Assembly: GCA_040954595.2 (NCBI GenBank)
Contig: CM082584.2
Location: forward strand, 12,871,166 to 12,935,165
Direction of reading: 5' to 3'
Source of the DNA: Balanoglossus misakiensis
Taxonomy: Eukaryota > Animalia > Hemichordata
Length of the DNA: 64,000 bases
Every line of letters starts with the position of its first letter. Positions within the stretch are counted from its first letter, which is position 1. Below the pieces are notes generated by a model. The model ran no database searches, was not told the DNA's origin, and saw only the letters and a list, made by a program, of their open reading frames with translations. Below are positions 95 through 56,298 of the stretch, in pieces. The translations under genes and the position numbers were made by a program.

Positions 95-3000
95 CCTGAT
101 ATATGCAGTTTGGCCATTTTTCGTCTTCAGAGTTGGGACATTCACCAACGATATCACACACCAGAATATCATCGATGCACATTTCATCGTTGCACTTGAA
201 AAATCCTCGCGGACAGTTTCCAGTGTCGTCTGGTACAACTGGATTATAATGAAAGTGCAGGTTATTAGAAATGGGAGAGAGAGAGGGAGAGACAGACAGA
301 CAGATTGATAATGAATGATGGAACAGCAGAAAAATGTCTGTGCCAGAAAAGTAAACGGCAAACATAAACTATGGGCAGATGGAACGCTGAAGGAGAAAAC
401 GTCACACGACGAAATCACTTACCATTTTCACCCTCGCAAATCCTACAACTCAGAGGGCAGTATTTCTTCATGTAAGCTGGATTCTGCGCACACTCTCCAT
501 TTTCAGCCCAAAACTCACAGTTGACGTTGCTGTCCGAGCATACTGTACAGAAACAACCCGTTAATATTTTGATGGAAATTTCCTTTGTAATGGAAGTCCC
601 AAGTGATATCATATATAACATTCTTGATGTAAACAACTATACTTACATAGACTGGTACAGTTCTGTAATTCATCACTACCATCTGGACAATCGTTGTAAT
701 TGTTGCAAACTTTCCAGGATTTGATACATTTGCCGTTGGTGCATTTAAATTCGTCTCGTCCACATAAAGCTGGAAGGTGGGAAAACAGTTATTAGATTTC
801 AGGAAGTCATGTGGGGCGTGACTGTTGAAAAATGACTTGTCCTGGTAGTAGTTTACTGCCAAAATGGCGGACGTTATCATTGACCAACGGGAAATGACGT
901 CACAAATAGACTCACCGTATTCACAATCCCTTTCGTCACTTCCGTCACCACAGTCATCAATCCAGTCACAAAGCTTTTCAATCTGTACACATTTCCTATT
1001 TTCACACGTAAATTCCCATTCTTGGCACAACCCTGCGAATGTAATTCAAAGCAACATTTCGGCAATTAGGCAGTTGGTGAATTTGAGCACAGAGACTACA
1101 GAAGATGAGAACGCATACTCACTATATTTACAGCCTTCTTCATCAGATCCGTCACGGCAGTCGATTTTGTAGTTACACTTATCCGTATAAGGATGACAGA
1201 AATTCACATCGCAGAAGAACCCATCGCATTCACGGCCAGGTATATCTGTGGATGTCAAGAAAGACGCATTTTACAAGAACATTTTGAATATCACATAGTT
1301 TACAATCACAATTCAGCTACGAAGCATGGCAATTGTATTTTCTTTGGTGGGGTCTCATCATCGTAGTCATCATCACCACCAGCACCACAAACAACAACAC
1401 AATGAAAACCTTACTGCAGTTCTTTTCATCCTCGCTCTCATTGCAGTCTTCAATGCCATCACACTTTCTCTCACCCGGAATGCAAACCCCGGACAATCCG
1501 CCTTTGGAACATTTGAACTGGTCTGCACCGCACACATAACTGGCTGTAAATGGTTGAATGTGGAAGAAATTTCGAAGTTTAATGACTGTATCATTTCATA
1601 GTATGAAGACACTAATACAGCTAGAACATATAACTACGGCCGGGCGTCATTCAGGAATACTCACTGAAGTCGCAGCCGAACTCATCGCTTCCATCCGGAC
1701 AGTTTCTCATTCCGTCGCAAACCAGATAAGCTTTGACGCAGTGAATGCCATCATTACAAAGACTGTCCCCAGGAAGACATGGCACTGAAAGGAAAATAAA
1801 CGGTAGTGGTAAGATTTATCACCAACCTTGGAAATAATTTCGCATGATTTTCGATGCTTTTTTGCTCCGAGAACTGGTACTCACCATAGTAGGCTTGGAC
1901 CTTGATGTTCAACATCATATTGACGAATGCATAGTGGTTGCTGTCTAATAACGCTGATGCTCGTACTTTATTGGTGTTGCATATCGTCACAGCCGGGAAC
2001 TTGAGGAAGCTCACGCTAGTTTCTTCCATGTCGATGTTTGTCTTCCGGGAATAGAAGCGGAACACCATCACAGAGGCCTGGACGATAAACGCGATGCAGG
2101 CGGCGACCACGACAACGGCCCACAGGAGTCGACTGGCACTGGTGCGCGACCTGCCGATGTTTGGGAGTCCGTGCCATGTGGTGTTATCGCAGAATTCGTG
2201 GGCCACGTTGCTCAGGTCTTTTGTGAACTCGTCCTGCTCTTTGCCTTCCTTTGAATCGTCGTCATCATCATCGTCGGAGCTTGAGAGGTCGCCAACTGGT
2301 ACTGTCGTCACGTTTTCCTTGCTCCCGTTTTCAGTTATCGTTCTGGTACTGAAATGTCAGAACACAAGATTAACAGAAAACAATTTGGTATTGTGTACTT
2401 ATCAGAGGGATAAGTTCATTACCATTCTTTGTTGTTCAGACAGCTTCAGAAAATCGAGATCTTGGATGTTTCTTAGAGCACATCATGGCAGAAATATGTG
2501 GCGATACAACAGAGTGATATGATACACAGATACAGATTGTATAATACGATATCATATACAGCCTACGTGTATGTCACTTACCGTGGACCAGTTCCGTTAC
2601 TTGAGATGTCTGATGAGAATCCATTGTTTGCGTACGCTCTCTAATCAAACAAGAGAAAAAACCAGCCTTTCAGTCGAGTCATGGATCAGATAATGGCAAT
2701 ACGTTGTATGCCAATTCTGATCAAACACAGCTTTATTATCATATTAATAATACTATGTAGTGTAATTAAACAATTCCGAACAGACTGTCTCAGTGTCTGT
2801 ACTTAATGTGTGTGTGTGTACATCGTGTTAATATAGTATTTATGACAAGACATAATGTATTTATTTTACCATTGTCATTCTTCTGCTCTTCCTGCGTAAC
2901 TGTTTTAATTTTCTTTTCCGTTTTCTCCTTCTCCGTATACAGACGACAGTGATGTTGATCGCAACCAAGATTGCGACGAAGAGAACCTGACCAGCAATCA

Positions 3001-6000
3001 GGATGGAAACTATGAAAATAAATACAAAGTGTTGTGCTGTTAGATCTAGTGTCTTGTATTTGAGTGACATATTGAACAGAAACACAAAGGAGATTAATTG
3101 TCTGAGAGATTTGAACCAATGTGTGTGACTGACATATGAATGTCTTTGTAGCCGTTGAGGGCGGCCTCTATAAGAAAGGCGCCAGTTTTTATCATCTCAT
3201 TTTTGAGGAAAGACTTGAGGAAAGCTGAGTTCTGGTTTACAAGGACCTCCCATTCTATAAACTGCTGCTCTATAATGAATGTGTTTACATGTACAGTGTT
3301 TCATATTGCCCAGGGTAACATACCATCTCTTGTGATTCTCAATTCAATAAAATTTCAACGTTTAGGTTTTTTCTTTATCCAGCTTTGAAAATTTAAACTG
3401 TGAACATTTGTTCAAAATCACTGGAGTGAACACCTGGAACAAATTGCACGTCGGATCCTTTAACAGAAGTAGAAATTGACACCAAAAAATGAAAAATGGT
3501 TGAGTATTGAATATCCGTGTTTCTTTACATATACACAGGTGGTGTGGCGTTCACTTTGTTGACGTCATCATTTAACATTTGTGGAAAGGAGACCGACACT
3601 TTCATGAAAATGTGCCCAGAATGTCGGTTGCACTAAACCATTGGCTGCGCTCTATTCCGCATAACTTTAACCAAATTTGAAAATATTTCTGCTTAAAACC
3701 GAGCAATATTCCTAGTTGACCTCATTGCATGGATGAATTTCCATGTTTAACAATGCAATAGGTGGAAACAATTTTCCCATGATACGCTTATTACGGTATG
3801 ATACTCGGGGGTAAAAATGTCCATTTGATGACTCACAATTAAAAATAGTCACCACAACAAATGATGTTAATAGGGTTCATTGTATCGACCTACCAGTACA
3901 TACAAGTACATCATATATACATGTAGTTAAAAACAACTGAAATGTAATTTTGTTATCAAATTCGACGTTTTGGAATGCGTCTCACGTGAAACAAATTTAT
4001 TTGTTGAGAACTCTGGTAAAATGAGACTGGGAATTATCTCCACTACAACGCACCCAGGGGGTGTTACCAGCTGTCACTCAGACTTATCATTAGCATACTT
4101 GACATGGTTCAATATCAAATATAAAAGGACATATGTTGCCTTTGCAATCGCTAAATGTGTAATGAACAGCTTGTCATGTAATATCGTCAAAATGTTTCAG
4201 TGTTTTTTGTTAAAACATGCAAATCGCGGCACGATTACAGTTGAATATGCCAAGAACAGGATGGCATATAATAATGATTGATGTTCTCCAGGGCTTTTAG
4301 TTGTGTCATGAAAGTGTGGATGTGCCTTCATGATCTTGGGAATATTCAACTGTAATCCTGTCCAGATGGTCTTACCGAGGCTCCAACTGCAATTGGGTCC
4401 AATCCACCAAGTACTGCACTGGCACGAGTATTCTAGACACTCATTGGTTGGTGTGCAGGTGCCACCATTTTTGCAGGGAAATGATTGGCAGGCATCCATA
4501 CCTTTAATCAAAGGAAGAACAAATCTGTCATCCATGGAATATATACAGGAAGGTCATTCTGGAATCTTCCTAGACTTCAATGTGTAAAATTATAGATAGG
4601 TTTGAAATAAGGAATAAGGCATTATCTCTTTGATTTCACACAAAAAAGGTCTATTTTGCTGTAGTATTTGACTTACTTATGTCGCACTGATCGCCTGTGA
4701 AACATATCGGGCATGAGCAGTTGAACAGTGTGCAGGTGCCTTCCAATGGAGTGCATGTGCCTCCGTTTGCACAAGGTGTTGATTCACAAGGATTATGATC
4801 TGAAACATGGGATGAAGAACAGAGGTTCAGGAAACACAAGGTCCATTTAAGAATATTGAAGACAGGTGATTGAAATGATATCAATGTCATAGGCAACAAT
4901 CATATGATGTACCAAGATACCAATTCTGTTGTCGAAAAGAGAAGGCCTTTTTACAGCAACTGCGGCTGCTTTACATGTAATACTCACACTTCTGGCACAC
5001 TTTGCCCTCGTAGCATTCCGGGCACAAACATTCATATTCCATGCATGATTCTGCGACAGGCTGGCAGGTAGCGTTGTTTCGGCAAGGAGAATAAAACGAA
5101 CACGGGTCTTCAAAATCTGTAAGGTCACGTCATTTTGTCAACAAAACAAAACAGTAAACTAATTATCTCTGAACTTTGAGTTTAATTGACATGGATATTT
5201 CTATAGTTACTGACAATAGATCTTTTGTCTGTGCATGGAATTGTTGATTGGGATAAAAAAATGAAACAAAGAGTCACCTGTGCATAACATGTGTCTTCAA
5301 TGGAGTATGCTAAAGTCTTAAACTTTATCTCATGTTATGCTCAAGGCAACTTCAAATGTTTTTTTACAATTGACCAAGTGAACAATTAACCATGGCAATT
5401 ACTTACACTGATCGCAGAGTTTGCCGGTGTAACAGTCATCACAAACACAGGTATACTGGTAACATGAGCGATCGTCGCGTATACATTCACCGTGTTCACA
5501 GGGATTCGAAGCACATGGGTTCAGCACTGGGGATGAGAAAGAGATTTGTGAAAGATGACGACGAACTATTATTAACAGTTGCAATAATATCCTTGGGTTG
5601 AGATTCTTTATATATGACATCAGCACGAAATGTAACATTATTAAGTGATGAAATCCTTTGACGTGAAAATGAATGAACGATAACTGAAAAGTTTTGGTGT
5701 TTGCTGTCAAGTGGTATCTGTTCTTGAGTTCATTTATAAGCAGCGCAGTGAAACGATATCCACCATTATCAACAGCTCATCCCGTTTGTCACACCCTTGA
5801 CCTATTACACTAGCATTGCCTACCCCGTAAAATTAGACATCTCTATAAACAGAAAGGACATGGCCAGTCATCCCAAACACATGCTTTATTCTGCCAATCA
5901 ACCTTGCCACTGTTTTTATACACGGGGTTACAGCCAAGGGTTCATTTGCAATGCAACGTTCCATGAGGGAGCGCATCTGGTACTTTCTGATCATATGTAG

Positions 6001-9000
6001 CGGTGAGCAGACAAGATACTGGTGGTTGATCTGATGTCTGGCAAACCCCCTTAAAATTGATGGGATGAATGATGGAGTGTTGATGTGAAAAGTTCATCGT
6101 TTGAAAGGAAATGCCGCAGTTGTTAATCCTTCCTGCCTCAGGGTCTTGCTGCAGGGTCTGAGGTTTAATCAAAGACACACCAACGCCCATAGACTCATAT
6201 CTGTGGCTTCATCCTGCTCAAACACAAGCTTCGCTCCATTTGCTGTGACGTTGTTTTATTGAGGGCTGGGATTATCAAACAATATGTAAATTACTCTATG
6301 TTTTATTGGAACGTACTCACTGAGACAGTGTATTATCTTATGAAATTGCACTCTCCCTGCGTACTTAATTGTGTCTAATAATCACAAAAATATAATACGT
6401 ATCATGGGTTTGAGTATCAAGTGAAATAAGTTTCAAGCCTCGAGATACAGAGTTCATTCAACTCACGATTCTGAGAGAGATGAGATGTTGAAATTTATCG
6501 TTGCGTGACTGAAACGCATTAACATTTATATCTGTACCGGTACATGGTTTATGGACATCATTAAAATGCACGAATGAAGAAGATGGACTTCTTATTAATT
6601 ATTATCTCATTTTAGAATGTTTGTACTTCGTGTATGCATAAAATATAAGTCAAACAAAAACGAAAAAAAGAATATGCACAGCACAGTATATATTTCATGA
6701 CCGCAATGCCATCTCGTAATAAATATGTCTCGATGCAAACTGCAGGAAAGGAATTATCGCTTACACAACTGGATGCTAAAAATTGACTTCGATTCCTTCA
6801 GGAATACAGGAAAAAAGTTTTTTGAAGTTGAATTCGACATATGACAACACCACCAAGCCACTGAATGGGTGCAGTTGGGAATATTCCGGCAGATACCAGA
6901 CCATGTAATTTCCCCGGAATAATTATGTGATTTCACTTGTGTTGCCTCAAAAGTGGGCTCATCTGTTGCCGAATGGATCATTTTGATTTCCTTTTCAATG
7001 TTTCCTTTTAGAGCAGAAGAGCGACGTGAATCCATGAATTTGTACAAATGAGCAAATTCTATGCTCTCTTCATCGCGCTGTCACGAAAAAGAATCAAACG
7101 TTGATTTTTACTTCGTAAGTAGGTTTGCTATTTGTACAAATTCATGGATTCACGTCGCTCTTCTGCTCTGAAAGGAAACGTGAAACGCATGCACCTTTTG
7201 CAAGTCATGGCCAGAAAAAAATAAGCTTTCATACTTACATATTTCACACGCTTCACCTGTGTAACATCCGGGACAGTCGCATATATGACCGCAAGACGTT
7301 TCGTCTGGTAAACAAACTCCGTGAACGCAAGGGTTTGGCTGGCAAGGGTTATGCACTGCAAAAAATCATTACAAAGTGTCTGAATATGTGACTGACACAA
7401 ACAGAAAAGCAAAAAACATATTTACACTTGTACATAAGTTTTCTCTTACCCGATACAATTACTGAGTCATATCGAGAGGCAGAGAGGCAGACAAACAGAT
7501 GGACATGTCCTCACCTGTTTGACACTGTTTCCCAACGAAGCATCCACGTTCTGTGTTTTCGCAAAAACACTGATAGTCATCACAGAGAGCGCCTATTGGC
7601 TGACAAGTTGTGTTGTATCCCTCAAGCACCGGGCATGGGTCAGAGTGACATGCATTGTTATCTGAGAAAAAAATTGATGAAAGACACGTCAAGCGGTTTG
7701 ATGGAGTTGATAAAATCCGTCTCCAACTTTCCTTATATTTTGCTCAACTCATAATATCTCGTATTTACTAACACTTGTACCTTGCAGGAAAAACCCCACC
7801 AAGACAATCTCAACCTTGATTAATCATGATCGAAACGAATTAAGTGGCACCAACGAGAAAATGTGTCCGACAGTAGCCAATGATGAATACACGTGTGTAT
7901 GCATTTGCAGAGAAGAGAGGCCAATAACTGTCCTTCAGATGTCAAACTGTCACGTTGTCTGTCCGCTGTTAAATTATTCATCAAATCCGTGCCAAAAGTA
8001 ATCAGACACCTGTCTACTATTTCCTGATTGTTAATATCTATGTGCTATGACTGAATTTCTTGGCAAGGCTATCAGGTTTTAATTTTTAAAATCAGTTGTA
8101 TCTTATAATCCCTCAGCCAAGTGCTCTTATCCAAATTGTAGGGAAATATTGCAAAAATACTCGACTTGCAACTTTAGCGATGATGATGGGACCTCTATGC
8201 ATCAAAGCTTGAAGGTGTGACAGCCATCAAGAATGTCAGAATGCGATGTCACAGTAATGACATGAATGCAATCGCAGTTAATGTAACTCCCATGATATGC
8301 CCTCATTATACTTACATATAATTGAATTGTAATTCCCAATTTAGCCTTTGGGAAGACCCCGTCATGCACCGACGTTTCTACAAACGTAATCAGGTCTTTG
8401 GCCTGACATTTTTGTGAAGATTCCAATGTATGGCATAAGATCAGGAAACAAACATTAACACCCAGAAAAATGGTTTTATCTATTTAATACTAAGGTCACC
8501 ATAACTACAGTTGTTTATCTATTATATGGGTTTTCCGACTTACAGTGGTTTAAATGAACCAGGCCAAAACCTGATCCTGTTGTTTGTTTGTTTGGGATTT
8601 TCGCATTAAGGTAAAACTGAGTTTGATATGCTACAAAAGGAAATGTCATTCTCTCACTCTACCCGCATGGATTAAACATAGGGTCATTGGCCCTATTGAA
8701 ATTTCAAAACAATGCCTGCGGTCTTTGAACAGGACAAGTCATCACTTGTGATGATTAAACGCGAAATGAAAGCAAAAGAAAAGCATGAATTAACCACTAT
8801 ATTAAAATTCATCATTACCTATTTCACAGCTGTAGCCTGAGTAACAGTCTGGGCATGTGCATTCATACTCCGTACACGAACCTTCTTTCATTTTGCATGT
8901 ACCTCCGTTCTGGCATGGGTTGCTTTCACACATTGTCGGTCCTGGTGAAATGAGTAGATACAGACAAGATAAACAAATAGTTGGTATATCCAAACAACAG

Positions 9001-12000
9001 TAATGCATGTGAATGTAGTGATGTCAGATCTATATAACTGCACGAATGATCTTTTGATGTATGTATGTAACATCTCGCTATCAACGAGGCTGAGGGAATC
9101 ATTTGTCAAAATTTTCTAAGATAAGTTCAACTTTTGGTAATATACCCAAGGCGCCCATTAATTATTGGCAGATGGGTCTTGCAGTCGTGGCTTACTCGCT
9201 TAATGAGTGAAATGGGCAATAAATCTTTCATTAGAGATGGTGTTAGTCAATTAAGAACTGCACTTGGGAATTGCATTATTTATCCCAGGTAATGTACTTG
9301 ACGATCGCTTTGGGTGTATGCATATGCTGTTCATGGTCAGTGCAGAATATTGAGAAGATGAACACATAACTACACATAGAGTAACACTCACCATATTCAC
9401 AATGTTCTCCAGAGAAACATTCTGAACAGTAACAACTGTAGGCTGTGTATAGACCAATCACCAGTTGACAAGCTCCGCCATTTTCGCAAGGGTTGTTGTC
9501 ACACGGATTGCGGGCTGCAAGAGTCCAAAGCAACAGAAAAAATATTATAGTAACATTGGAATTCAACACACAGCCAAACTGTTAACATGTCAGCTTAGTG
9601 GAAATGTATCATGCAAATGCATATTTCATGTCTTGGAAACCCTTGTGACAGTGTTGTTAGAATATCAAAATGCTAAACCTCGATCTTGTCAGTACAATCA
9701 CGCACACTTTCAAGATTAAAGTTTCAAAAAGTCACTAATGCACTAATGTTGATCCATTACATGAGATTCACGGTTTTCATGACCAAATCAAACTTACTAG
9801 TGGATCTGGTGACGACCGATGTGCTGTTTCTGCCATTGATGAAGGCAGACACTGTGATGGTGTACGACGTCGCAGGGAAAAGCCCTGAAAATCTGAACTC
9901 TGTTTCTGTCTTGTCGGCGCGAACGGGGAAGTTGCCGCCGTGTGGAGGGTCCAAGAAAATCACGATATCTTCTCCGGTAATCACACCGGATATCCGCCAT
10001 GATGTCAGGATAATCGTCGGACTGACGTGTGTTATCGTCAGAAGGATGTCTGCAATATAAAGAACCAGACGTGTATTGAATATTCAATGTGGTATAAATT
10101 GTGTGTATCAGTATAAGAACCAGTATAGGGCATGTACATTCTGGTAGTCACTGAGGTTCTTGCAAACATTTTAGTTTTTATTACATATATTGTGTCACTT
10201 TAGCTTTTGAAATTCGTAAGTATTCATAGTTGTGTAGATATCTGACCCCAAAAACTTAGATGTTTCACTAAAAATCATCAGATGGAGCTATTATACTGTT
10301 TAATTAGAATTCAATAATAGACCAATTGATATAGTAGAAGGTGCTTCTTAAAAATAGCCATCGCCTTGTTGTTCACCTTAATCGAACACAATGGAGTTAA
10401 TTTGACGAGTGTGCACTTAATATGTTGAACGAAAAATTAATATGCTGATTCAATTTTGATCAATAACAATATTGGCAATTTAATTTCCTTAATAAAAACA
10501 TGGTGACAATGGTTTAATATCATCTCGTCACCAACGTATAAGTCCAATGCAGAGTCACCTGAAAAGGTGAAATTTAAACTACCCTGAGGTCATGGTCGCC
10601 CGACCTTGAAGAACAGGAGAAAGCTGTCAGAATTTCTAGTCAGAGAAGTTTGACGCAGGCAAATTATTTGTTTGTGGTACTAGTAGCCTGTCTCTATGAA
10701 CATTCCCCCATCAGGTAGAACATGGTATTTTTGGTTCTGTTGGTGCAGTTGTGAATTTTTCTGACGACTGCCACGAACAAACCAATCACCCGCACCTTGT
10801 TGCCACCGAAAGGGGACACCAACGCAAAACTATTATAGGATCACAGTTCACTGTACATTCAGTCAGTCAATGATCCCGCAATACCTGCTCATCAAGCTGT
10901 CATTTGACGTGAGATCGGCCTTCGCAAAATTGACATCTGCCATCAAAGGTTATTCACCTATAAAATATCTACAGCTGACATAATATGAATAACAACTAGC
11001 GTTCGTACAAAGCAATGTAAATTTATACAAACAAGATACATTTCATCGGTCAACGTGTTCACTGTTTCTGAATAGCATGGGCATATTTAATGACCAACAG
11101 CTTGGCAGATGATCTGACATCACGCATCACCTGTGCTTATCTTCATTACCACAAAGTTAATACAAATTTCGCGTCAGAGTTGCCTGTGTGTTAAATTTAG
11201 AGATTCGGACATGTGGGTTGATGCTTATGTATGCCTAAATACTCCTTGTGGTTAGCAAACGCATGCTTGACTATCATGCAAATACCACATTTGCACCAAA
11301 TATCAAAAAGACAAATGAATCAAATCGGTGCTATAAAGGATTGCAAGCTCTAATAGACAATAAATATACATGGTTGTTATCAGAGGGGAATTTCTCTGAC
11401 AGTATGGGATGCCTGTCACGGACTAACTGTTTCATAAAAAAGGTTGCATCGAGCGATGGAATGTATTTCAGATGATTGGATATGGTCTAGTAAATAAGGT
11501 ACTTAGAAGTGATGAATTCCTTTGTGCTGATGTGATATTTAATGTGCTCAGAGTAAACAAAATAGAAAACTGCATCGTTTAGAAGAAACTAGAACAGCTC
11601 AGCCTTATCACACATATGCAAAGGGAAGCATTATATACAGGAGGAAGAAGTAAGATTTTCCCCTAAATCCTATTAAAAACAGTCCATTGCTATGAAAATT
11701 CTGCTAAGAGAGGGAATCACAAGTCAATTTAAAAAATAATAATAATAGGTTAGATTTGAACGAAAAATATCTTTCTAGCGTCTCAAGGAATAATTTCAGG
11801 CTTTATTTTCCAAAATTTGACTTTTCTTTGAAGACACAGGATCTGCGCATGTGCAGAACCTTCGGCAACGACCTGCCTGTCGATTTCCGCAGTTTTACCA
11901 CAAAAAATCACAAGATAACAGAGTTAAGGTAGAGAATCTAATCGCTCGATTGTTTGCGCATACTTCCTAACTGTCGACCCTTTTGAAAACATTAGTATGA

Positions 12001-15000
12001 ACTCATACCGTCTATGAATTTACATGTGGTGATCAAAGGATGGCAGTTCGATCGAGGACATCTGATATATATGAACCAGACACAAACATAGCATAGCGCA
12101 GCGGTCAATATTACCAATATTTCGATTAAAAACACTGATTCTAACACTAACCTCGGTATCTGCAGGTTCAATTGTGATAAAATCTTACGATTTGTGCATT
12201 TCTTGGCCATCTAGGGCAATATTCCAGTCCTGTTTTCCACGAAAACTGATCAGACGACATGACCTCACAGTTGAGGTAGCGTGATGTTCCAGGAAGCTGG
12301 TGCGCGCGCGTTTGCCTAACTTGCTACAATGTTACCATGGTAGCACCATGACGAAATCCCTAGAAAATCTCTATCAAAAAGCGTTGGAACGCCTCATGCA
12401 TTATTGTCCTCTTTGACAATTTAGGTGGAAAATTCAATATCACGTTTGCAATGATACGAATCTAGTGACATAGTTAATATTAAATTAGCCGCAAGTCCAT
12501 TCAACGTTGGCAATAGTTATCGACCTGACTCTGGTAACCATGTGGCTGAAATGACAGTTATGACAGCGCTGTGACGACATCTAACATCGTCTAAGTACAA
12601 TTTGGTTTTCTTCAAGGTTGCGTCATGTTATTTTTTAAATATTAAGATCAACAAACGTATGAATATGGTTTTCATTAAGTAACATTGACATTGGAAATTG
12701 CCATTTATTGATTCGAAGGCAGTGTTCGATTTTGTTTTGTGCCAATAAATGTTTTTACTTGACTTTAATCTTGGCCACAGTTGTTATGTATTAATGAAAC
12801 ATTGGCACATGAAAAGCATTCGTGTTTCACTTCGTGGGTCTTTTATTTGTGAAATCTCCCTAATCATGAAATTAGATTGACGCCTAAGGGAAAATTGACA
12901 CCATTATTAAGCCTTCAAAACGCTTTGACCGCTATTGCACACTACAGCAGGATATTAATGCGTTTAGCCATTGTAGTGTTCGAAGTTAATTGACAGACGT
13001 CACAAATTAGAAAACATAGGTAACTCCAGAGAGATAATACTTGTTGTGGCGACAACTTTGACCAAGAACAGTTATTGGTCAGTCACGTCGGATGAAGTTT
13101 ATTACAAAGCGCGATGATCAAACCTTGATCCAGAAACGTCCTGCCATAACGTCATATCTGAAATGTTGATGTTCATACAGGCTTTGCAATTAACCCGCCA
13201 TAGTTAATGTCAAGGTCATCCTTCTAAAACAACCTTCAAATTCATAAAGGAAGATCGTGCCTATTTAATCATATAACTTTTTGTTTGGCTATTTGTCTAA
13301 GTTTGAATTTCGCGTATGATGCTCCCAGTTGGTGGAGTTGTCGGCCTGTGTTGACTCACCACAGCCTTCTGTGTGGGCTGGTCTCGAAAAGCAAACCGAG
13401 ACATGTGGAACCTGAAATTTCTTTATCACCGAACAGCTGGACCTGGCAATACTCGACGAAATAATTAAACAAGATTTATTGACGTGTTTTCAGGCACCAT
13501 TGTCTGCCATTGTGTTGTATTTTGAAAAGGGGTCACTAAATATACTATGCTGTCGTTTTGCGGGTAGGTTGGTTAACACTCACAGAGAAGCTCGCCCGTG
13601 ACCTTTTTGATGAGGACTAGATACCGTAATGTGAGAACTGGACCCATCATCATGACACGTATTATCTACTGAATTGAAATGAACGTTTGTTTTTACGGTT
13701 ACTTCCCAGTTGGGACTTCTTTGGTCATAAAATTGTCAACATCTGCGGAAAAACTGATGACAGAGCTAAACAATACGGCACAAACATGCGCATATAGGTA
13801 GCAGAACGCAGAAAGGCATGTGAGCTAATATTACCCGATGAGTTACAACCCGATACACATATAGGTGGAAGAGAGAGCGTATACGTGTGTTGCATGCTAC
13901 AGAATCTCAAACCTTTGATCTTTCCGCACAAACTTAGTCTTCGCGTATAAACGTGACACCGAGGAATAATCGCATTGTCAAAGCCCAGCACAGCGAAAAT
14001 TATGTGTAATTCACTCCATAACTCCACCCAACCACCTTTAAGCAATGTAAATTGTTCTATTTTTGTATAATTTTAATTTCCTTAAACAAAATAGAACATG
14101 CAAATGTAAGCAAACGTAAATATTTTCGCCAGAGGGAATAATTATTTCCCCGAGGTAATTTAAAAGCGTACGACGCTACCCTGGAAATTTGAAGCATTTC
14201 GTTTCTACGTGACGGACATTCTCCAAACCCAACCGCGTTGAAATCTCCAGAAACCCCCGTAAATCATTTCATCTCGACTACAAGTGCCTCAGAACCCAAC
14301 GAAGCTTGTCGTACGTGAGCGATGTGACGGCCAATGAAGCACGATTATTGCAGTTTAGAAACGCACTTTCTTACAGCTGAAACAGTACGGAAATGGATAT
14401 AGCGTTCTTCAGCTTCATCCAGTTTTTCAGCTGTAATGTGATCTATATTTGCTTTCTCTGTCACATTCGACACGAATGTACAATGTTATTCGAGATGGCA
14501 GGTCGTTACGTCGTTAGCGGACATATAAATGCATGTTTCAGACCCTTACACTCATTTCCGTAACTTGTTGTCACTATCAAACTGTCTCGAAGAAACTGTT
14601 TTTCACCATGTTGACGAAATAGATGTTAACATGTCCTTTCGTAGGCATTTACATCATCGCATGCGTTTCTCAGTTTTTGCGACCATGGCGACACATGGTG
14701 TTGAAAATAAATTGCCAATGACCTTGATTGCGTGGCTTTTTTGCCTCCCAACAGTGGTCATCTCCAAGGGACTGTGTTTATATTCTGAAATATTTATTTC
14801 ACTTATTCTTGCTGTGTTTTGTTTTCAGTGTTGCTAATCAGTTGCTATGCCATTGTTGTGGAAAATGAGCGATCAAATTAAAACCCGGCACAATTCAGAT
14901 GATTGATTAAAACACATAAGACTTACTTCGCTCAGAATTTTAATAAAACCAATGCGGTCCCACGGCGCTTTTTGTTGATTTTTTCTGGCGTTTAATTGAC

Positions 15001-16150
15001 TATAGGAATTATCTTAAATGCAACGAGCGAGGGTTCCATTTTCAGTTGTTGTTCTGCGATTCATTAATATTCCGACCGCTAGTTCCCAAAATAAATATTT
15101 TCTGTCCGATTTACATTTTTTATCGTGGTTGAGCACTAGATCTGCCCGTTTTAGTTTCGGTCGCTCAATATCATGTACAGTCATGATCGGGCGTAACATA
15201 TCTAAGTCACAACAACGCTGTTTTGTTGTGCGCAACAAAACTGATGTATCTTCTATGCTAGACCAGGCCAGGAAGACAAAACTTCAAGTTCCTGGGATTT
15301 GGCAACTAGTAAAGCTTTTATTTATTTTTTACTGCATGACCACAGAAATTTAAAAGTGACACACCTTGACCCTGCTTTCTGCCTTCAAATGAACACAGAT
15401 ATTTTAATAACGCGTGCCATGCACATGTGTTGCTCATTACGATCCATTGTAAAGTCAATATCATGATTGTCTACTTTCAGATGGAGTATTGATATCAACC
15501 ATGGATTCTTGTTCTATTCCCTAAAGCATGATGTATTCAGTTTGTCAACGCTACTACAGAGAGGCACTTCGCTTGTAAAATATCTATTCGACCTATTCAT
15601 GAACACATTTCATTTAATTCTCATAATTTTGTTGCGCAACGTGTTTACAAATATATTGGCTGGCATATGCGATTTTAACACGCTAAGCGCATTATTAATT
15701 AGCTAGCTATAGGACGTAACATAGGTTAACATACGCGGGTAGGAATCAAGTACGTATTTAATTGTTTCAAAGAACTGTTATCGTTATTAATATAATGCTT
15801 ACGTATACGTGAATGTGACATCCACATTTCCGAAGTATTAAAGAAGTAGATGCTTAAGAGTGATCGCTTTACAGCTGACACGAGAAATTGACTGACAGAT
15901 AGACAGACAGATAGATAGACAGAGAGAGAGAGAGACAGCCACAGTGACTTAACTGAAACCCAGCTTGTCATTATACCAGCACTCATGCATATGTAGCCCT
16001 GGGTCAGTTGGCCTCGGATGAACGTTTTATAAGGGAGATGCTAATAAAAACCAAAAGTTCAAAAATGAACTTACCACATTCTACCGGGTTAAATGTCCAA
16101 CACACAAGTAATAAGAACGACGCTGCGCGTACTATAGTTCCCTTCTTCAT
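95..16150 (-). CDS. Predicted FN3/EGF type-I receptor fused to a DEG/ENaC channel subunit carrying LDLa and ShKT modules; 3'-partial, 20 exons and about 958 codons visible
   Basis: Exons (minus): 16150-16075, 10049-9798, 9514-9392, 8941-8819, 7661-7515, 7355-7239, 5526-5407, 5116-4988, 4799-4677, 4501-4376, 3009-2870, 2640-2582, 2348-1885, 1784-1665, 1543-1415, 1245-1123, 1032-916, 769-647, 542-423, 238-95. All introns GT-AG, all junctions phase-compatible, no in-frame stop. Module identities are clear; joining them into one transcript is a prediction. Confidence 0.75.
423..542 (-). CDS. ShKT domain exon
   Basis: [35 protein letters not shown] fits the ShKT six-Cys pattern with W-A-x-x-G-E-C and C-P-x-S-C-x-x-C; 120 nt, phase 1-1. 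Confidence 0.9.
647..1784 (-). CDS. Five LDL-receptor class A exons inserted in the DEG/ENaC ectodomain (a sixth lies at 95-238)
   Basis: Six-Cys modules ending in D-x-S-D-E-type motifs: [81 protein letters not shown]; all phase 1-1. Confidence 0.92.
1885..2348 (-). CDS. DEG/ENaC (amiloride-sensitive channel family) N-terminal exon: HG motif, TM1, post-TM1 signature
   Basis: [17 protein letters not shown] (HG motif), [27 protein letters not shown] (TM1), [16 protein letters not shown] (FPAVTICN signature). Confidence 0.93.
2870..3009 (-). CDS. Transmembrane helix plus polybasic stop-transfer exon
   Basis: [47 protein letters not shown]; acceptor tattttcatag phase 1 matches the EGF8 donor; donor ATG|gtaaaa phase 0. 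Confidence 0.85.
4376..9514 (-). CDS. Array of 8 single-exon EGF-like modules
   Basis: For example [40 protein letters not shown] and [36 protein letters not shown]; each exon 117-147 nt, symmetric phase 1-1. Confidence 0.92.
7000..7179. repeat. Long near-perfect inverted repeat (arms about 56 bp, spacer about 67 bp), intronic, MITE- or hairpin-like
   Basis: 7000-7056 gtttccttttagagcagaagagcgacgtgaatccatgaatttgtacaaatgagcaaa is the reverse complement of 7124-7179 apart from one substitution and one indel. Confidence 0.9.
9798..10049 (-). CDS. Fibronectin type III domain exon
   Basis: [20 protein letters not shown]...[22 protein letters not shown] has the FN3 Trp and the L-x-P-x-T-x-Y-x-I-x-V-x-A signature; 252 nt, phase 1-1. 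Confidence 0.85.
15893..15938. repeat. Compound (GACA/GATA/GA)n microsatellite
   Basis: gacagatagacagacagatagatagacagagagagagagagacag is directly visible. Confidence 0.8.
16075..16150 (-). CDS. Signal-peptide exon, first coding exon of the FN3/EGF-DEG/ENaC gene
   Basis: [25 protein letters not shown] followed by a G|gtaag phase-1 donor; basic n-region, hydrophobic h-region, V-E-C cleavage-like site; phase matches the FN3 exon acceptor. Confidence 0.7.
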
Positions 16151-27140: not shown

Positions 27141-28047
27141 ATCAACAACTTGACTGTTTTTGTGACAATTGTTTGCTTGCCAGTCAATTCACATTAACGA
27201 TATACCGCAAAAGAATTCCCAAGCCCACGGTCAATCGCTATTATAATTGGGATAAAATTGACAAATGGTTGTATTTGTCAAAACATTTTTTTCTTTTTGT
27301 TAAGTGCATATATAGCTGGTCTATTTTGACGCAGAACTCAAGCATTCCCGTCTCGAAGTATACAAGCGCACGACAATCGATGGGTGTGAGAGGTCGCGAA
27401 ACCCTGCATACTTTCCATCTTTTCATCACATGACCCGAACAACCTGTCTATTTGCACCTGCTGCTGTTTAACTCTACAAAGATATGCAATTGGGTCGGAC
27501 AGGCGTTAAAAAGCACGTTTCCATTAGCTATAAAGGCAGTTGTGAATAATTTACGTGTTCGGCGATTGTTCTTGGTCACGGTGCGTGAGCAGGGTAGATG
27601 AATTGTCAGTCGTCTTCCAGACGCGGTCTCCCGGCGGAAGACGGCTCGCTTGTTTGGGGTGTGTACATATTTTGCCAAGGTAAATCTGTTTGCAGCGATT
27701 ACGAGAAAAACGGCCGAATAATCCTGTTACCTGAACACAATTGACTTTGGGGTGGAATGCCTTTCATCACCTGCGGATTTACATCACAAAAAGCAACCCT
27801 CTTGTGGCGTTTGTTTCGAAACTATTAGAATAATTGATCTCTCCGGATTGGCAACGAATCCCGTTATAATAACAACAACAGCATCGGTGTCTGTTGTGTG
27901 GCACACTTCACTTAAAGGAAATCAGTCTGACGACATCTCAGAGAAGTGATTCAGACGCCACGGCAGAGAATTCTTAATTTTTAATAGTTCAGTTCAGAAA
28001 TATTTCGGCCGTAACACGATTTCCGGTATTCTTGTATTAATACCATC

Positions 28048-28674
28048 ATGATGAAAGCGATGTTAGCAGCTGCCGCTAGAAGTGAGCAAAATATTCCACA
28101 GCATCAACAGCAACCAGCGCCGATGGAGCGACAGAGGTCGGCTACCTCAATCATCTCAAAATTAAGTAATTCCTCTGCTGCGACAGCTGCTCTGGGAGCG
28201 GATCTCGAAAAAGCGGACAAACCGAAACAGCCTGTGGCATTATTCGGCAAGAGGCCGTCGATGTGGAACTCCGTACACAAACTACTCAAAGAGAAACCCG
28301 CAGCACCGCCGAAGAAATTCGAAAACACGTACAGAATGCAGCCGGAACGTGAACACGAATTCAAATCACACCAGGTCCGGGAGCTCACGGAAGAGATCCT
28401 GAAGATTCGACTCAATGATGAAAAGTACGACCAGAAGAGAGCCAACAACTTGGCTAGAAATCTGGCCGAAGTGATCAAGTCCAGAGTCAAGAAGCTGGAC
28501 ATGCCTCGACATAAGATCGTCGTGTTCTGTGTGATCGGGTCACGACAAGAGCAGTGCTTGCGACTGGGCAGTCGGTGTGTCTGGGATGAAAAGACCGACG
28601 ATTTCGCTTCGGCCTCATTCCAGAATGGGTCTATCTTCGCCGTTGCTACTGTTTATGGGATCTATTGTGAATAG
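28048..28674 (+). CDS. Tctex1 domain-containing dynein light chain (TCTEX1D/DYNLT5-like), intronless CDS, 208 aa
   Basis: FENTYRMQP...IKSRVKKLDMPRHKIVVFCVIGSRQEQCLRLGSRCVWDEKTDDFASASFQNGSIFAVATVYGIYCE is the Tctex-1 domain signature; the exact paralog cannot be resolved. Confidence 0.92.
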   Translation: MMKAMLAAAARSEQNIPQHQQQPAPMERQRSATSIISKLSNSSAATAALGADLEKADKPKQPVALFGKRPSMWNSVHKLLKEKPAAPPKKFENTYRMQPEREHEFKSHQVRELTEEILKIRLNDEKYDQKRANNLARNLAEVIKSRVKKLDMPRHKIVVFCVIGSRQEQCLRLGSRCVWDEKTDDFASASFQNGSIFAVATVYGIYCE

Positions 28675-33039: not shown

Positions 33040-36000
33040 TTAAGATCCAAACTCAACAGTGTCGTCAGAAATTTCTTTGTATTCATACGCACCACGTCCA
33101 TCCATGTGCAAATAGTACTGTTGTAGAGAGGAATACAGAAAATGAGGATTAGTCTGATATGCTTCAGATAACAAAGAACGACTTTGAAGCTTTAATGGGC
33201 GGTGTGTGAGGGTGTGTGTGTATGTTACTCAATGCAAAAATACATGGATACGCTGACATTGTATGAAGACTGCTATCCAAGACGATCAGCATTTTCTTTA
33301 CCCTTTGCAAAAAACCCATCCCAATCTTTAATCATGTTCAAGGTCATAATTACAATAATAAAGTTCAAAGTTCAGCTAGAAACATCTCCAGCTTAGGGGG
33401 ACTGACTTTACCTCATGGTGTTTCCATAGTGATTTTCTGTGGGAGACAGTGAACAAAGTGATTCCTTGCTCCTTGCAGTAGCTGTACATGTAACCTTCAA
33501 CATCAACACTGACCGCGCTGGTGCATTCATCCAGGATGGCAAACTGGGGTTTGTGGTAGAATACACGGGCCATCTGAAATAGAAAACATTGTAATTTCAG
33601 AAATGTTTTAACCCTGTGCACCGTGACCCCCACATGAGCTGTGATGTCAAGAGTCCTTCTAGGTCAGGGTTCAAATGGTCAGTCACTGGCATGCAGGGAT
33701 GCACCTGTACAGAAATTACTCCCTGATAGGCGATGTTAGTTCTTGTTTGACTTACTGCTATTCGTTGTTTCTCTCCTCCACTGAGCACATCCATCCAGTC
33801 TTGTACAGCATCCCATCCACCTTCCCTTTCCAACAGATAAGCCAGTTGAACCTACAGAGCATTCATTGAAATTAAGATCTTGATGTGGGAAATGTTTCTT
33901 TGTTGCCGGGAATAAAACCCAAGACGTTAGTGTTATCATATACCAATAGATACAAAGACATGCGTAACTATATGAATTTTAAGTGTCATCCCAGTTGCAG
34001 TCCTATGAATGCAGCAAAACTTTCCTCCAAAAGTTTTACAAAATTTCTCATTAATGAAAAAACTCTAGCCTGTAATTGCATGGGCTTTTGATGTTAATAT
34101 TGACACAGCAAAAACCATAGACGTTTTCTGTCTCTGAGCAAGGAAAATACTGGACCAACAACAACAACAACAAAACTTACTTTATCCAGATATTCCAGAA
34201 GATCTTCATCTGTGATACCCTTCCGTATCATTTCAACTTTTACGTCTGGATAGATGATTTGATCCCGAAAAGTTCCCAGGGTCATGTATGGTCTCTGTAT
34301 AAAAACAAAAGAATCGTTACGCATTGAATTTGAAATGATCTGCAATAAATTAATACTTTCGGTTAGGAAGAACTTGTTTTTGGAAACTTGGGATGCACAA
34401 ATCGACCAAGTATCATTTTAGAGTCTAAGATGCGATTATCTAAAATTTGAATTCATTGATTTAATATGTATGTACATCCGGATAAGTGCAACGCCCTTTT
34501 TTGGCCATTGTTCATTATGAAGAGGATAGATAACACAAGATTGGGCAGAGACGGAAAACAAGATTACGATTCAAGTTTCTGAAAACTACGTTAGCCACTT
34601 TACATGTTAGAAATTGCATGGAGAATTCACGCGTAAAGATAGCTTTGAGTAGTTCAGCCTTGAGAAAAATCAGCCAATCTGACAATCACTACCATTTAAA
34701 AGATTAGATTTTGATCACCCCATTTCATATAATATGCAATCCTGTTAAGCCATGACAATCTTGTTTTCAGTCTGTGCTCAATCTTTTGTTATCTGTCTTC
34801 CTTTTCAACAGAACGATAGCAAAAAAGTGGGATGCAATCATAAATTTGACGCAAAAACCATATACAACTGCAGGGGCTTGTTTGGCAAAGTGACCACATG
34901 CGATTGGAAGTGTCAGGTTCCCACAGTAATCAGTCTCATTCTCTGTAGTCACTGCACCCTGATGACTTCAGATCTATACTGACACACTGGCAATGCACAC
35001 TGACAAATTCAAAAACCCATCAGAATCTTCTCACAACTGGCAATGCAGGGCAACTTTTGAAACAAACACTGGAACTCACCTGCGGTATATAAAATAGTTT
35101 TCCCTTCTCAGGCTTTGTCATCTTGCCACCAAATAAAGGCCACAACTGAAAGTTAAAAAAAAAGATGATTAAACCAAAGGAAATTTGAACGTAAAAATCA
35201 CAAATAAAGAATGGGTGTCACCATGCAAAATTGGAATGACAAAGCAAAATTGTCTCAAGTGGCCACTAATCTCTGTGTTAAAGAAAACAATTTAAATTAA
35301 TGATTTTAATAAAGATTGGAAGCGCCTTTTCAGATCATCTTCAGGGGGCTGGTCAGTTTGTATCTAAAAGAGCATGTGACCCTTCCACATCACATGATGG
35401 TCATGAGACCATCATTTAACAATAGAATGAATATTTGTCAGAGAACAAGGGGGGTTGATCCCTTCGTGCAAAATTGTTGTGAGATAATCCTGCAGTCCAG
35501 GGGTGGCACTTCACACAACTCATTATCAGGGCGCTGGTTAGATTGTATCTTTCTTCACTTGAAGATTAAAAGGGCATGTGAACCCAGTAATCAAACCACT
35601 GTATCAGGATGCAAACAAAAATGTAATCACACTTATTATGAAAGCAGATGAACACTTTGATCCTGAAGTCTGTCTCTGCAGACATCTGCTGATGGATGAT
35701 TCAAATATAGCCAATCACAGATTTTCATTGGGTGCCACCACATGATCATTCAAACACCTACTCACGCTTATTTGACCATATATAGGCATATGTAAATTAG
35801 AAGTGACTGTATACCTTTTAAGGACCCCAGAAAACAGGATATCAAGATGGCAACAGATGGGGGAGGAGAAGGAGGGGGAAGGATGAAAGGGTTCATATCA
35901 CTTACCTCACCAAGTGTTCTGAATAAAGAGCTTTTGCCACATCCATTTGGACCACACACTAAGACATTTTTGCCTGATTCCACTTCAAACGACATGTCCT

Positions 36001-39000
36001 TTATCAAGACATCCCCATTTGGTGTTACCAAGGGAACATTTTCAAATCTGGCGTTAAAACAAATTAAAATAATGGGTTTGTGTTACAAATTACTGCAAAG
36101 ATCTTCAGTCTCCACTAAAAAGATCATTGTCTCTTTTAAATACAGATGGTATGTACTTCAGAAAAAAAATTCTGGAAATTTTTTAACTGACATTTAAATT
36201 GTAGAAACCTCTTTCACAGAAAGTATATTGGTCAGCATTCTGCTGTGGGCTGGATTATTAAGGTAGACTGGACCTCAAAAAGCTCAGTCTTAAAGTACGG
36301 GTCATCCTTTAAGACAGATTTTTGAGGTGTAGTCTACCTTGTCTGTATCTGTGGTGTCTACTTCCTTAACTTAAATGCTAACATACTTGATTAAATGATC
36401 TTTGAGTATGACAACACCACTGCCAGGCACTAAGGGTTGCCTGTTGTCTTCACTGTCTGAATCTACAAGAAATCAAACCATCAATTAATTAATGTAGTGG
36501 CAGATGTTGAAGCAGGCAGTTACTCGGGACAAGAATCTACATGTGCCTACCTTTGTTGTTTGAAGTTATGCTTGTATTCACCATTGTGCGTTCGTAATGT
36601 CCTCTGTTCAGATCGTCCAACACAGTCATCAGCTCTGTCACTCTGGCCGTAAAACTAACAGAAGGAAACAGGGAATAAATAATGACATCAAACTTACAGT
36701 TCTATGACTCTGGTTGTAAATCTGAGCAACAGGGCAGTAAAGGTCAGTGTAAAATCTACAGACGTGAGGAAAACAGTTGTGTCAAAGTGATCCAGGCACT
36801 CACCCAGCCAATCTTGTCATTTCTCTGCCTGCCAACACAATTCGACCAATAGCCTGTGCCATCCGCACCAGCATACGACCTGACTTGTAATAATCCTATA
36901 AACAAAAATATCCTCTTGTATTATTCATTTACATGAATTAACAAGTGTAACAAGGTCTTGCCAATTTCTATTTTATTTTTAAATACACACAGCGTATTTC
37001 TCACCTCAAGAAGTTCATTATGTGTGCTGTTTTCATGTCTTGGATTTGTAAGATCTAAGAATGGACGACTGACAACAAAATAGCCAACCACAGTTGCTAT
37101 GTCTGAAAAGAGAAAAAAGGAGATTCAAGTTTGCATCATGATAAACATGTATCAGTAATTATTTCACCAACCTAGCAAAGAAACATATTTTTTTAAATAA
37201 CAAATTTGACACCATGTTCTATTGACTTTGATACTGATAAAAATATCATTTGACTGTATTAAAACAAAGCAAACATGATCACATAAGATATGGTATGACT
37301 GACTACCATATTGAATTTAAAATTGTCCCTAAAGAGGGCGCTCTTCTCTTCATGAACAAATGTGGAACCAACATAATTGGTTGCATACTTACATTTAGCT
37401 ACAATGTTATCAACAAAACCCATGTTGAATCTAAAGGTAACAAAATCAGTCAGATGGTTCATCAGCTTCTGGAATGTCTTGTTTATCGTCCTCTTCTCTT
37501 TCTCGCCACCTTGATAGAATGCTACTTCTTCACTATTCGTGATAAGACGAGAATTCACGTATCGAAACTCGCCTTCGTATCTCTGTTCAACAACTGTCAT
37601 CTTGCCAATGGGGCGTCTCAATCTGTGATTCGGGGAAATAAAAATATCTCAGCTTAATGCAGATTGCTATGGTCATGCGCAGACAAGCATTGGCTATGCC
37701 ATGTCACAAACACTTCACCTTTCCTTTAACCATACTGTCCATTTCCACACCACAAAGATGGTATACAGCGCCCTCTTCAGGCAACAATTGTAATTCTCTG
37801 TGGTGTTCCAAATATGCTTTTTTGTCATTTGAACCATGTTCAAAGCCAATTGTGCAAACACATAGGTCCTGATCTCATTTTAACGTATTATTATAGACCC
37901 ACCTGGTTAATATTAATCCTGAGAAGGCAAGGTAACCCATCATAGAGGCAGGTCCTTGTACCCCTATAGCATTGGTCAGTTCCCGGATGTAAATGATGAT
38001 GTCCAGTAAAGGCTGCAATGGAAAGACTTTTGTTATCAAAATGATTCTCAGAATTCAATGATGCCTGTCATCAATGTCACGTTTCAAATTGAAAGTGATA
38101 CAATTATCAGCATTGCTTACCTTACTAAGATTTGAGTAAAGATCTACCGTACTGTTGCAAAACTTCTCTGCATCTTGAGTCAATAGTTGATCAGCGTTTG
38201 ATATTCTATTGTCGAGGTTACTCATCTTGTAGTATGTGTTACCTCTGAAAACAAAATGTGCAGGACTTTTTATGAGTAACCAAACAAAATGAGAAAAATT
38301 CAGGGTTGCACTCAAAAATAACACACCATGTTCCAGCTGAAGCTCATAAAATATTGGAAAAATTCGTTCTTGTCTCGTCTTACCTGAGATATTTTTCATA
38401 GAAGTGGTTGGTCAACCTCTCGCGGAACCGAAGCTTCAACATATTCATCCCATACTGTGAAAGAGACAATAAACCATGGCTTTAGAGGTCCAATCTTACC
38501 ATAGAAAACAATGGGTTTGGATTGAACCATGGTGGTGAAAGGGTTAAGCATTCCCCAGGACATTCAGTTTGTCCCAGGGAATACAAACCTGGAATCATGC
38601 CATTTGCTGAGTTTGACGTCATTTCACTGGCTATCCTAAATCAACTTACCTTTAATAAGTTGTTGATAATTGAAATCTGAAATCAAAAAGAGAATGAAAA
38701 TTTATTTATAATTATGTGACAAAAATGTGACCAGATCAAAGGTACATTAATTTTTCTAATTCAGAAAAAATACATGTTACATTTGGGAGTTAATTCTGAT
38801 TTCTTCATAAGGATCATGAGACTCACCCCAGGCATGGCATAAATAAATCTAAATAAATGATGTTTAAATAAATCCACGTTTCGTCCAATGATAGCACTCT
38901 CAATGGCTGTACCATTGGATATCATCCAGACATCGCAGTACGTTCTGGCTATCAGCATCACAGCTATGAGGATTATATAGCCGGTCTGAAAAGAAAAAAA

Positions 39001-40824: not shown

Positions 40825-41259
40825 GACACTGCTGGACGCAATAACGCAACGAACGAAATGAACTTTGGTCAATCGAGGTCGCGAGGTGAAAGGTCGATGA
40901 TATGCAAATTTCATTTGAAAAACAAAAGTATCTGATGTATGAAAAATGTAGGCACTAGAGGGCTCTGGGCTATAATAGTATAGGTATGGAACATGCAGAG
41001 CAAATTATTTATATACCCGCGTTTTGACAAGAAAATTGACAGGAAGTTTGGCAAATCCGAGTGTGCTGCTGCATTTTCCACAACTTGAAGTTTTCATAAT
41101 ACAGATTTTGTATTTAATGGACCGTGCTCAAAAGTTGCTCTTTTTAATGAACAGAAGGCCCAATGAGTATTTCTGGATGGGTGAAGACACGATTGAAGAT
41201 TATTTCTCAAATTTGATTTCAACAGCCTGTTATTTTTTTTTTTTTTTCACTCACGTCAG

Positions 41260-56000: not shown

Positions 56001-56054
56001 AAACAAATGCTTAGAAAAAAGTTTCTCAAAAGAAGTCCGTAATACAGACAACAT
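44058..56054 (-). CDS. MPV17L2: Mpv17-like protein 2, 4 coding exons, 207 aa
   Basis: Exons 56054-55805, 54935-54774, 53702-53626, 44192-44058, phase-consistent; [86 protein letters not shown]. Confidence 0.95.
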
Positions 56055-56298
56055 GGCAGTATAGCTGTCGTTACCTGGTGATCATGGAACACTCTGTGGG
56101 TGCAGAGTACATGAATGAATGAAAACACACCATCCAAAGTTTACGCATCTACCACTGAATTAGCATATAACGGGATTGTTGATGAAATGCGCATGAGCAT
56201 TACGTTCGAGTACCTTTCAGTACCTTTAAGTTGGCGTGTTTTATGAGACCCACCTAAGTTGTTCCACATTTGTGACAACCTGTTTCGAGGAGGGAGGG

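Follow-up and report, generated by a model that had tools for sequence, protein, structure and literature searches.

Does an acorn worm make a DEG/ENaC channel subunit that carries its own extracellular arm, or does a receptor gene simply lie next to a channel gene? This question is raised by a 64,000-nucleotide stretch of the Balanoglossus misakiensis genome (GenBank assembly GCA_040954595.2, contig CM082584.2, positions 12,871,166 to 12,935,165; hereafter the window). A minus-strand gene at its left end joins an ectodomain of one FN3 and eight EGF domains, through an extra predicted transmembrane (TM) helix here termed TM0, to the beginning of a DEG/ENaC channel. Comparison with homologous gene models indicates that the full-length fused protein very probably exists. 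The fused layout is conserved across acorn worms, has been found only there so far and is unnamed in RefSeq.

A gene model running from EGF arm to channel

The 20-exon model, whose exon chain was built by coordinates, extends from 16150 to 95 on the minus strand and comprises 2875 nt encoding 958 amino acids with no stop codon and with GT-AG borders at all 19 introns. It encodes, in order, a leader, FN3, eight EGFs, TM0 followed by an Arg/Lys run, a 59-nt linker, the HG motif and TM1, five LDLa modules, a ShK-like module and a sixth LDLa. Past position 95 the gene runs on to the left, outside the window, and a GT donor follows the exon at 95-238. The initial annotation, drawn from the window alone, had placed the critical joins exactly: the donor of the eighth EGF exon lies at 4376 (phase 1), the TM0 exon at 3009-2870 (140 nt, phase 1 to 0), the linker exon at 2640-2582 (59 nt, phase 0 to 2) and the acceptor of the channel exon at 2348 (phase 2). 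The frame stays open across these three junctions, as had been proposed, and a transcript that skips either the TM0 or the linker exon, or the two together, would lose it before HG. Also as described there, no in-frame Met precedes HG within the linker and channel exons, the former having no ATG and the latter its first (2068) after HG; two in-frame ATGs at the end of the TM0 exon, past the helix (2878 and 2872), had gone unnoticed. By itself the agreement of three phases would be weak support, since it would arise in about 1 in 27 cases if the phases were independent, and it is the homologues that carry the case. Identities in the following list are to two of these, P0002 and P0003, described in the next section.

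16075-16150 (-), exon 1, with the start codon and a predicted signal peptide (68% identity to the P0003 N-terminus; leader judged by eye)
9798-10049 (-), FN3 exon (Pfam fn3 E 6e-5, 23.6 bits, below the 25-bit cut-off)
9392-9514 (-), EGF1, 7 Cys, without extra Cys a (cysteine parsing, as for all EGFs)
8819-8941 (-), EGF2, 8 Cys
7515-7661 (-), EGF3, 8 Cys (EGF3/EGF4 boundary mis-cut by the parser, 16 Cys jointly)
7239-7355 (-), EGF4, 8 Cys (same mis-cut boundary)
5407-5526 (-), EGF5, 8 Cys
4988-5116 (-), EGF6, 8 Cys
4677-4799 (-), EGF7, 8 Cys
4376-4501 (-), EGF8, 7 Cys, without extra Cys b, C-x-W at its end
2870-3009 (-), TM0 exon: extra hydrophobic helix, conserved Gln and basic stop-transfer cluster (hydropathy peak 2.8; 72% identity to P0003, 59% to P0002)
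2732-2869 (-), start of the following intron: non-consensus donor, read-through stop at 2863-2861, AATAAA at 2865-2860 and 2737-2732 (sequence reading)
2582-2640 (-), 59-nt linker exon (57% identity to P0003, 42% to P0002)
1885-2348 (-), channel exon: acidic linker, HG, TM1, first palm/beta-ball strands and start of the finger (Pfam ASC E 9e-23, profile positions 1-112)
1665-1784 (-), LDLa1 (Pfam Ldl_recept_a E 9e-10)
1415-1543 (-), LDLa2 (Pfam E 7e-9)
1123-1245 (-), LDLa3 (Pfam E 3e-4, below cut-off)
916-1032 (-), LDLa4 (Pfam E 4e-10)
647-769 (-), LDLa5 (Pfam E 1e-13)
423-542 (-), ShK-like module (Pfam ShK E 1.5e-10)
95-238 (-), LDLa6 (Pfam E 1e-4, below cut-off)

LDLa was recognized by Pfam in all six exons, in two of them below the cut-off. 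The fn3 cut-off is passed by the paralogues P0004 and P0007, and FN3 structures were matched by Foldseek with the P0003 model. The intron between EGF4 and EGF5 holds a MITE-like inverted repeat of 50 nt (7000-7049/7130-7179; 98% complementary, 80 nt apart).

Fused homologues in three acorn worm families

Searching with the channel exon among longer proteins returned three matches among 262 candidates, all of them RefSeq acorn-worm models with TM0 before HG: Glandiceps XP_077981954.1 (P0002; 1438 aa, with thumb and TM2 complete) and two from Ptychodera, XP_070564444.1 and XP_070564509.1 (P0001/P0003). Over 638 positions the window model shares 75% identity with P0003, and over 953 positions 67% with P0002. 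With the C-terminal channel part as query, P0004, P0006, P0007 and P0023 were added, and an identical domain order was found in P0001, P0003, P0006 and P0007 (Ptychodera), P0002 (Glandiceps), and P0004 and P0023/P0175 (Saccoglossus). A helix ahead of HG is present in seven of the 127 proteins with a detectable channel N-terminus (174 proteins were fetched, the other 47 of which could not be scored for this feature), and the seven fused proteins span three enteropneust families, Spengelidae, Ptychoderidae and Harrimaniidae. The separately named Saccoglossus model Sakowv30011650m, from the supplement of PMC10507113, has the same EGF-TM0-linker-HG joins as P0004. With the identical fusion in RefSeq models of three families and in this supplement model, the earlier proposal of one polypeptide with a leader and an extra helix is supported, and a chance annotation merge appears unlikely given the shared order, the single clade and the complete channel ends.

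That clade was recovered in a tree of 92 C-terminal channel domains (quick IQ-TREE run, SH-aLRT branch support only, midpoint root), from which P0003, having no C-terminal channel domain, and most lower-ranked matches are omitted. The six fused proteins with a C-terminal domain and the fragment P0034 form one branch (SH-aLRT 99), divided into P0001/P0002/P0034, P0004/P0006 and P0007/P0023. Because two of these subgroups span both Saccoglossus and Ptychodera, the fusion is likely older than the split between these genera and was later duplicated. The Ptychodera members, and two Saccoglossus genes, seem to form gene clusters, as suggested in part by consecutive accessions; no paralogue was found in the window right of 10100. 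P0003 and P0034, neighbouring entries among the Ptychodera RefSeq models with consecutive accessions, look like the two parts of a single gene split just past TM1; P0001 is a near-identical second copy or haplotype.

An arm query against proteins shorter than 790 aa gave no close arm-only orthologue among the listed matches (the best 120 of 142): the first, P0003 at 66%, is itself fused, and the other 119 reach at most 37%. P0079 and P0091, two long proteins that extend upstream of the channel start, were discarded as tandem channel merges without TM0, and the sole result of a metagenome scan, locus L001 (62% GC), matched only the hydrophobic TM1 stretch and was attributed to chance. The ESM Atlas yielded no usable match for the TM0-TM1 region. 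One Ptychodera model in the DEG/ENaC dataset of the PMC10507113 supplement, g971, appears on inspection to start with an Ig-like, a TM and a tyrosine-kinase-like segment and is either a gene-model merge or another chimera.

Predicted three-helix topology

An N-terminal leader and an extra helix are indicated by hydropathy, charge bias and AlphaFold prediction. In all eight sequences no Lys or Arg occurs in the 15 residues before TM0 and 7-14 occur in the 20 after it, a bias that matches a type I helix and fits a cytoplasmic HG; this is consistent with the initial annotation, in which a signal peptide and an extra TM were predicted to bring HG to the cytoplasmic side. In the seven aligned sequences a C-x-W invariably closes the last EGF directly before TM0, and one mid-helix position of TM0 is always Gln or Glu.

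DEG/ENaC subunits are described as two-TM proteins with cytosolic termini (PMC9822975), and the predicted protein falls outside a definition by two TMs, a cytosolic N-terminus and no leader. It shares with canonical DEG/ENaC/ASIC/FaNaC subunits the Pfam ASC domain, HG, TM1, thumb, TM2 G-x-S and an ASIC-like fold, and differs from them in a predicted signal peptide, an ectodomain of about 420 aa, a third helix and an LDLa/ShK insert of about 290 aa (both sizes predicted); it would thus be an ASC-domain protein outside the canonical two-helix topology.

Channel domain and its LDLa/ShK insert

Membership of the ASC superfamily is evident from the Pfam ASC match of the window exon (E 9e-23) and of P0002 (E 1e-83). 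The pre-TM1 HG followed by TM1 is present in the window exon; the Cys-rich thumb and the TM2 G-x-S (GVS or GIS) are found in P0002, P0004, P0006, P0007, P0023 and P0175, and for the window gene these are known from the homologues only, since they lie outside (left of) the window. An AlphaFold model of P0004 that starts at the last EGF and covers the rest of the chain (80-row alignment; pLDDT 82, pTM 0.70) comprises a long TM0 helix, pre-TM1 helices, TM1, palm, thumb and a TM2 broken at G-V-S, with the LDLa modules sitting past the first finger helix. Foldseek ranked ASIC1 first for this model (E 7e-27), the best folds being ASIC1 and FaNaC.

No part of the protein is better conserved than the LDLa/ShK block (56% among paralogues). 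Its closest parallels are two-helix DEG/ENaC proteins of acorn worms, echinoderms and amphioxus (P0005, P0008-P0022, P0024-P0033) that carry LDLa, kringle, PAN, F5/8 or link modules after TM1. Those with LDLa, kringle, PAN or F5/8 inserts have the nearest channel domains (37-50% identity) and, like the fused protein, place the modules after TM1; they differ in having a short cytosolic N-terminus, no TM0 and no arm, and are uncharacterised database entries. Because many two-helix relatives carry LDLa inserts, the crown that these LDLa and ShK modules form on the finger probably represents the older ligand- or partner-binding element.

A predicted cysteine-stapled EGF arm

The EGF array of the window model, P0002, P0003, P0006 and P0007 contains 62 cysteines in a 7+6x8+7 pattern, the first repeat being without the extra cysteine of the C3-C4 hairpin and the last without that of the C5-C6 loop; in P0175 the pattern is 7+5x8+7. 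The simplest reading would be a disulfide joining each neighbouring EGF pair along the face by which tandem EGFs pack, which would make the array a stiff rod, with an arm length that we estimate at roughly 25 nm from typical domain sizes; no description of such inter-EGF disulfide staples was found in the literature searched. Among 119 generic EGF matches the extra-cysteine motif occurs in one, P0264 of Anneissia japonica, with identical complementary ends, and this protein could possibly be a relative of the donor of the arm. P0264 is a secreted crinoid Kunitz-EGF-Kunitz protein with a run of five EGFs and a MEC-9-like domain content.

The EGFs hold five O-glucose and four O-fucose consensus motifs and fold like Notch EGFs by Foldseek of the P0003 model. 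Pfam scans of the fused homologues contained no DSL family, which sets the arm apart from Notch ligands of the Delta/Jagged type. One or two Cys-rich modules stand at the tip of the arm in P0007 (residues 26-142) and at the N-terminus of P0023/P0175; the resemblance of the tip module of the P0007 subgroup to chitin-binding type 1 (Atlas 0.80, no Pfam hit) is a lead only.

Relation to known channels and tethers

The C. elegans proteins EGAS-1 to -4 ('EGF plus ASC domain') have been named and cloned (PMC10424705). As in the acorn-worm protein, a hydrophobic leader and EGF repeats are followed by the ASC domain within a single chain (leader and EGFs read over the first 400 residues, PMC10507113 supplement). 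By eye over the same residues, EGAS differ in having ordinary-looking EGFs, a WSC-like module and no evident FN3. Their HG and TM1 columns in the trimmed published alignment, likewise read by eye, are scattered N-terminal pieces (PMC10507113), which suggests that EGAS may be without HG and TM1. The acorn-worm protein retains both and adds TM0 and LDLa/ShK, and the two fusions are likely convergent. The initial annotation knew of no characterised channel with this architecture; this stands for the three-helix form, which is undescribed in the literature searched (searches made without the name EGAS and covering few subscription journals), and needs softening as regards the EGF-ASC fusion as such, already named as EGAS.

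The companion review PMC10148893 does not mention EGAS. The main texts of PMC9822975, PMC10507113 and PMC9234716 gave no match for LDL, and the EGF matches shown in the text of PMC10507113 are to EGFP. The phylogeny section of PMC10507113 notes only uncharacterised ambulacrarian groups, and the passages available of PMC9949801 and PMC6827283 contain nothing on this subfamily.

[quoted passage not shown] The MEC-4/MEC-10 channel with MEC-1, MEC-9 and MEC-5 is similarly a pairing of EGF-rich extracellular proteins with a DEG/ENaC channel, though of separate secreted proteins, whereas the acorn-worm protein is one chain without a Kunitz domain. Polycystin-1/2 likewise places a large adhesive ectodomain on a channel-forming subunit, with permeation altered by ligand (PMC12513491), and differs in its TRP-type pore, 11 TMs and GAIN autocleavage, no shared ancestry being implied. 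A separate mammalian tether has been proposed in TENM4 (bioRxiv 10.1101/2024.10.10.617546).

How the arm may act on the channel

We tentatively favour a three-helix subunit whose arm would tether the channel to matrix or to a neighbouring cell, tension probably biasing opening; we hold it no more firmly mainly because the linker between TM0 and HG is slack. The signal peptide would send the FN3-EGF arm outside, and TM0 with its basic cluster would return the chain to the cytoplasm, so that HG, TM1, the channel ectodomain and TM2 would take their normal orientation in a predicted out-in-out-in topology of three helices. The extra cysteines would staple each EGF to the next into a likely rigid arm, and with the last EGF abutting TM0 without a stalk, arm and TM0 could move as one lever. 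Extending past the channel body, the stiff arm would bind matrix or another cell and hold the channel in place, and force could reach the pore through packing of TM0 on the channel helices, perhaps involving the conserved mid-helix Gln/Glu, or through membrane deformation, the cytoplasmic linker not being the route. A mechanosensor role is suggested by sequence features and by analogy, MEC-1/MEC-9 being counted in favour of the tether. Subunits from the three paralogue groups may assemble into a heterotrimer like that of ENaC; a self-tethered mechanotransducer in its most elaborate form, a heterotrimer of paralogous three-helix subunits with stapled EGF rods levering the pore via TM0 and one rod tipped by a chitin-binding-like module, is unlikely as a whole.

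Several observations weigh against the tether. The fusion is known from gene models, and RefSeq predictions for related species lack full independence and may borrow from each other. The TM0-to-HG linker is long (94-109 aa), poorly conserved (17% identical among paralogues) and predicted disordered (72 residues at pLDDT below 50 in the P0004 model), so that it is unlikely to carry force, and TM0 is 28% identical across paralogues versus 36% for TM1. In the arm, 47 cysteines, an odd number, are counted in P0004 and in P0023; both look like incomplete models, to which P0175 and the supplement model add repeats. An AlphaFold model of the arm built from seven sequences reached a pTM of 0.27 and does not show rigidity. 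EGAS expressed alone in oocytes gave currents no different from controls (PMC10424705), and the worm matrix localises channels, a gating tether being unproven there (PMC2958478).

Next to the tether stands a receptor-channel gated by a protein ligand or by cell contact with no mechanical role, in which arm and LDLa/ShK crown would together capture a ligand, whose binding would either open or close the pore. The crown is the best conserved part and lies past the first finger helix, a region that serves in gating in ENaC and FaNaC, and the O-glucose and O-fucose motifs and Notch-like fold of the EGFs point the same way, as does polycystin-1/2 as a ligand-activated receptor-channel (PMC12513491). 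We nevertheless consider this reading rather unlikely: armless LDLa-inserted relatives exist, so that capture would not need the arm, the Pfam scans list no DSL domain, and the predicted staples would fit a strut better than a flexible catcher.

Still less probable is an arm that anchors or traffics only, the pore being a leak, protease-gated or pH-gated, or the subunit silent within a heteromer. The slack linker, the mainly positioning role of MEC-1 and MEC-9 (PMC2958478) and the silence of EGAS homomers (PMC10424705) would all be accommodated. HG and G-x-S are, however, retained in all full-length members, and coupling is suggested by the conserved polar residue of TM0 and by the junction of EGF and TM0 without a stalk.

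Local signals at the TM0 exon bear on a further alternative. Its donor is non-consensus (GTAAAA) and read-through meets an in-frame stop after two codons (2863-2861); the 229-nt intron that follows holds two of the 15 intronic AATAAA of the gene where 0.26 would be expected (15 per 13,181 nt), an excess (Poisson P about 0.03) that is not significant over 19 introns. A receptor-only isoform ending at this stop and AATAAA, or a two-helix isoform from the ATGs at 2878/2872, is possible. That these are the two main transcripts, an EGF receptor ending past the TM0 exon and a two-helix channel, with the fusion a minor form or an annotation merge, is very improbable: besides the donor, stop and AATAAA signals, an in-frame Met occurs in the linker of seven of eight sequences and an older Ptychodera model (PMC10507113 supplement) joins EGF to channel without TM0, but the fusion is conserved in three paralogue groups and three families, the Glandiceps orthologue P0002 contains no Met in its TM0-to-HG linker, no arm-only orthologue was among the listed matches and the separately named Saccoglossus model carries identical joins.

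Neighbouring genes in the window

Right of the fused gene lie an open reading frame (ORF) for a Tctex-1 family dynein light chain (28015-28671, +; Pfam E 6e-29), ABC transporter exons at about 33379-41004 (-; Pfam ABC_tran on one exon), which resemble those of a peroxisomal ABCD3, and an LRAT-domain ORF (41197-42231, +; Pfam E 9e-13). Exons at 54691-56081 (-) resemble those of an Mpv17/PMP22-family gene, though Pfam gave no hit for the single exon scanned, and a 231-aa ORF at 57658-58350 (+) had no Pfam hit. They are followed by exons of a Cys-loop (nicotinic-type) receptor (60463-61803, +; Pfam Neur_chan_LBD and Neur_chan_memb) and by a fragment resembling a PIF1-type helicase at 62942-63280 (-; no Pfam hit).

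Implications

Whether extracellular tethers gate DEG/ENaC channels or merely position them is a decades-old question, long open since the tethers are proteins in their own right and attempts at reconstitution have failed. In a natural subunit with a whole channel and its own arm, this question would become addressable by simple deletions. The acorn-worm proteins suggest that the DEG/ENaC fold tolerates a third helix and that an EGF array may be stiffened by inter-repeat disulfides. If the self-tethered heterotrimeric mechanotransducer is real, one polypeptide would do what C. elegans does with MEC-4 and MEC-1/MEC-9, and for the first time a DEG/ENaC tether could be expressed, cut and pulled on in culture.

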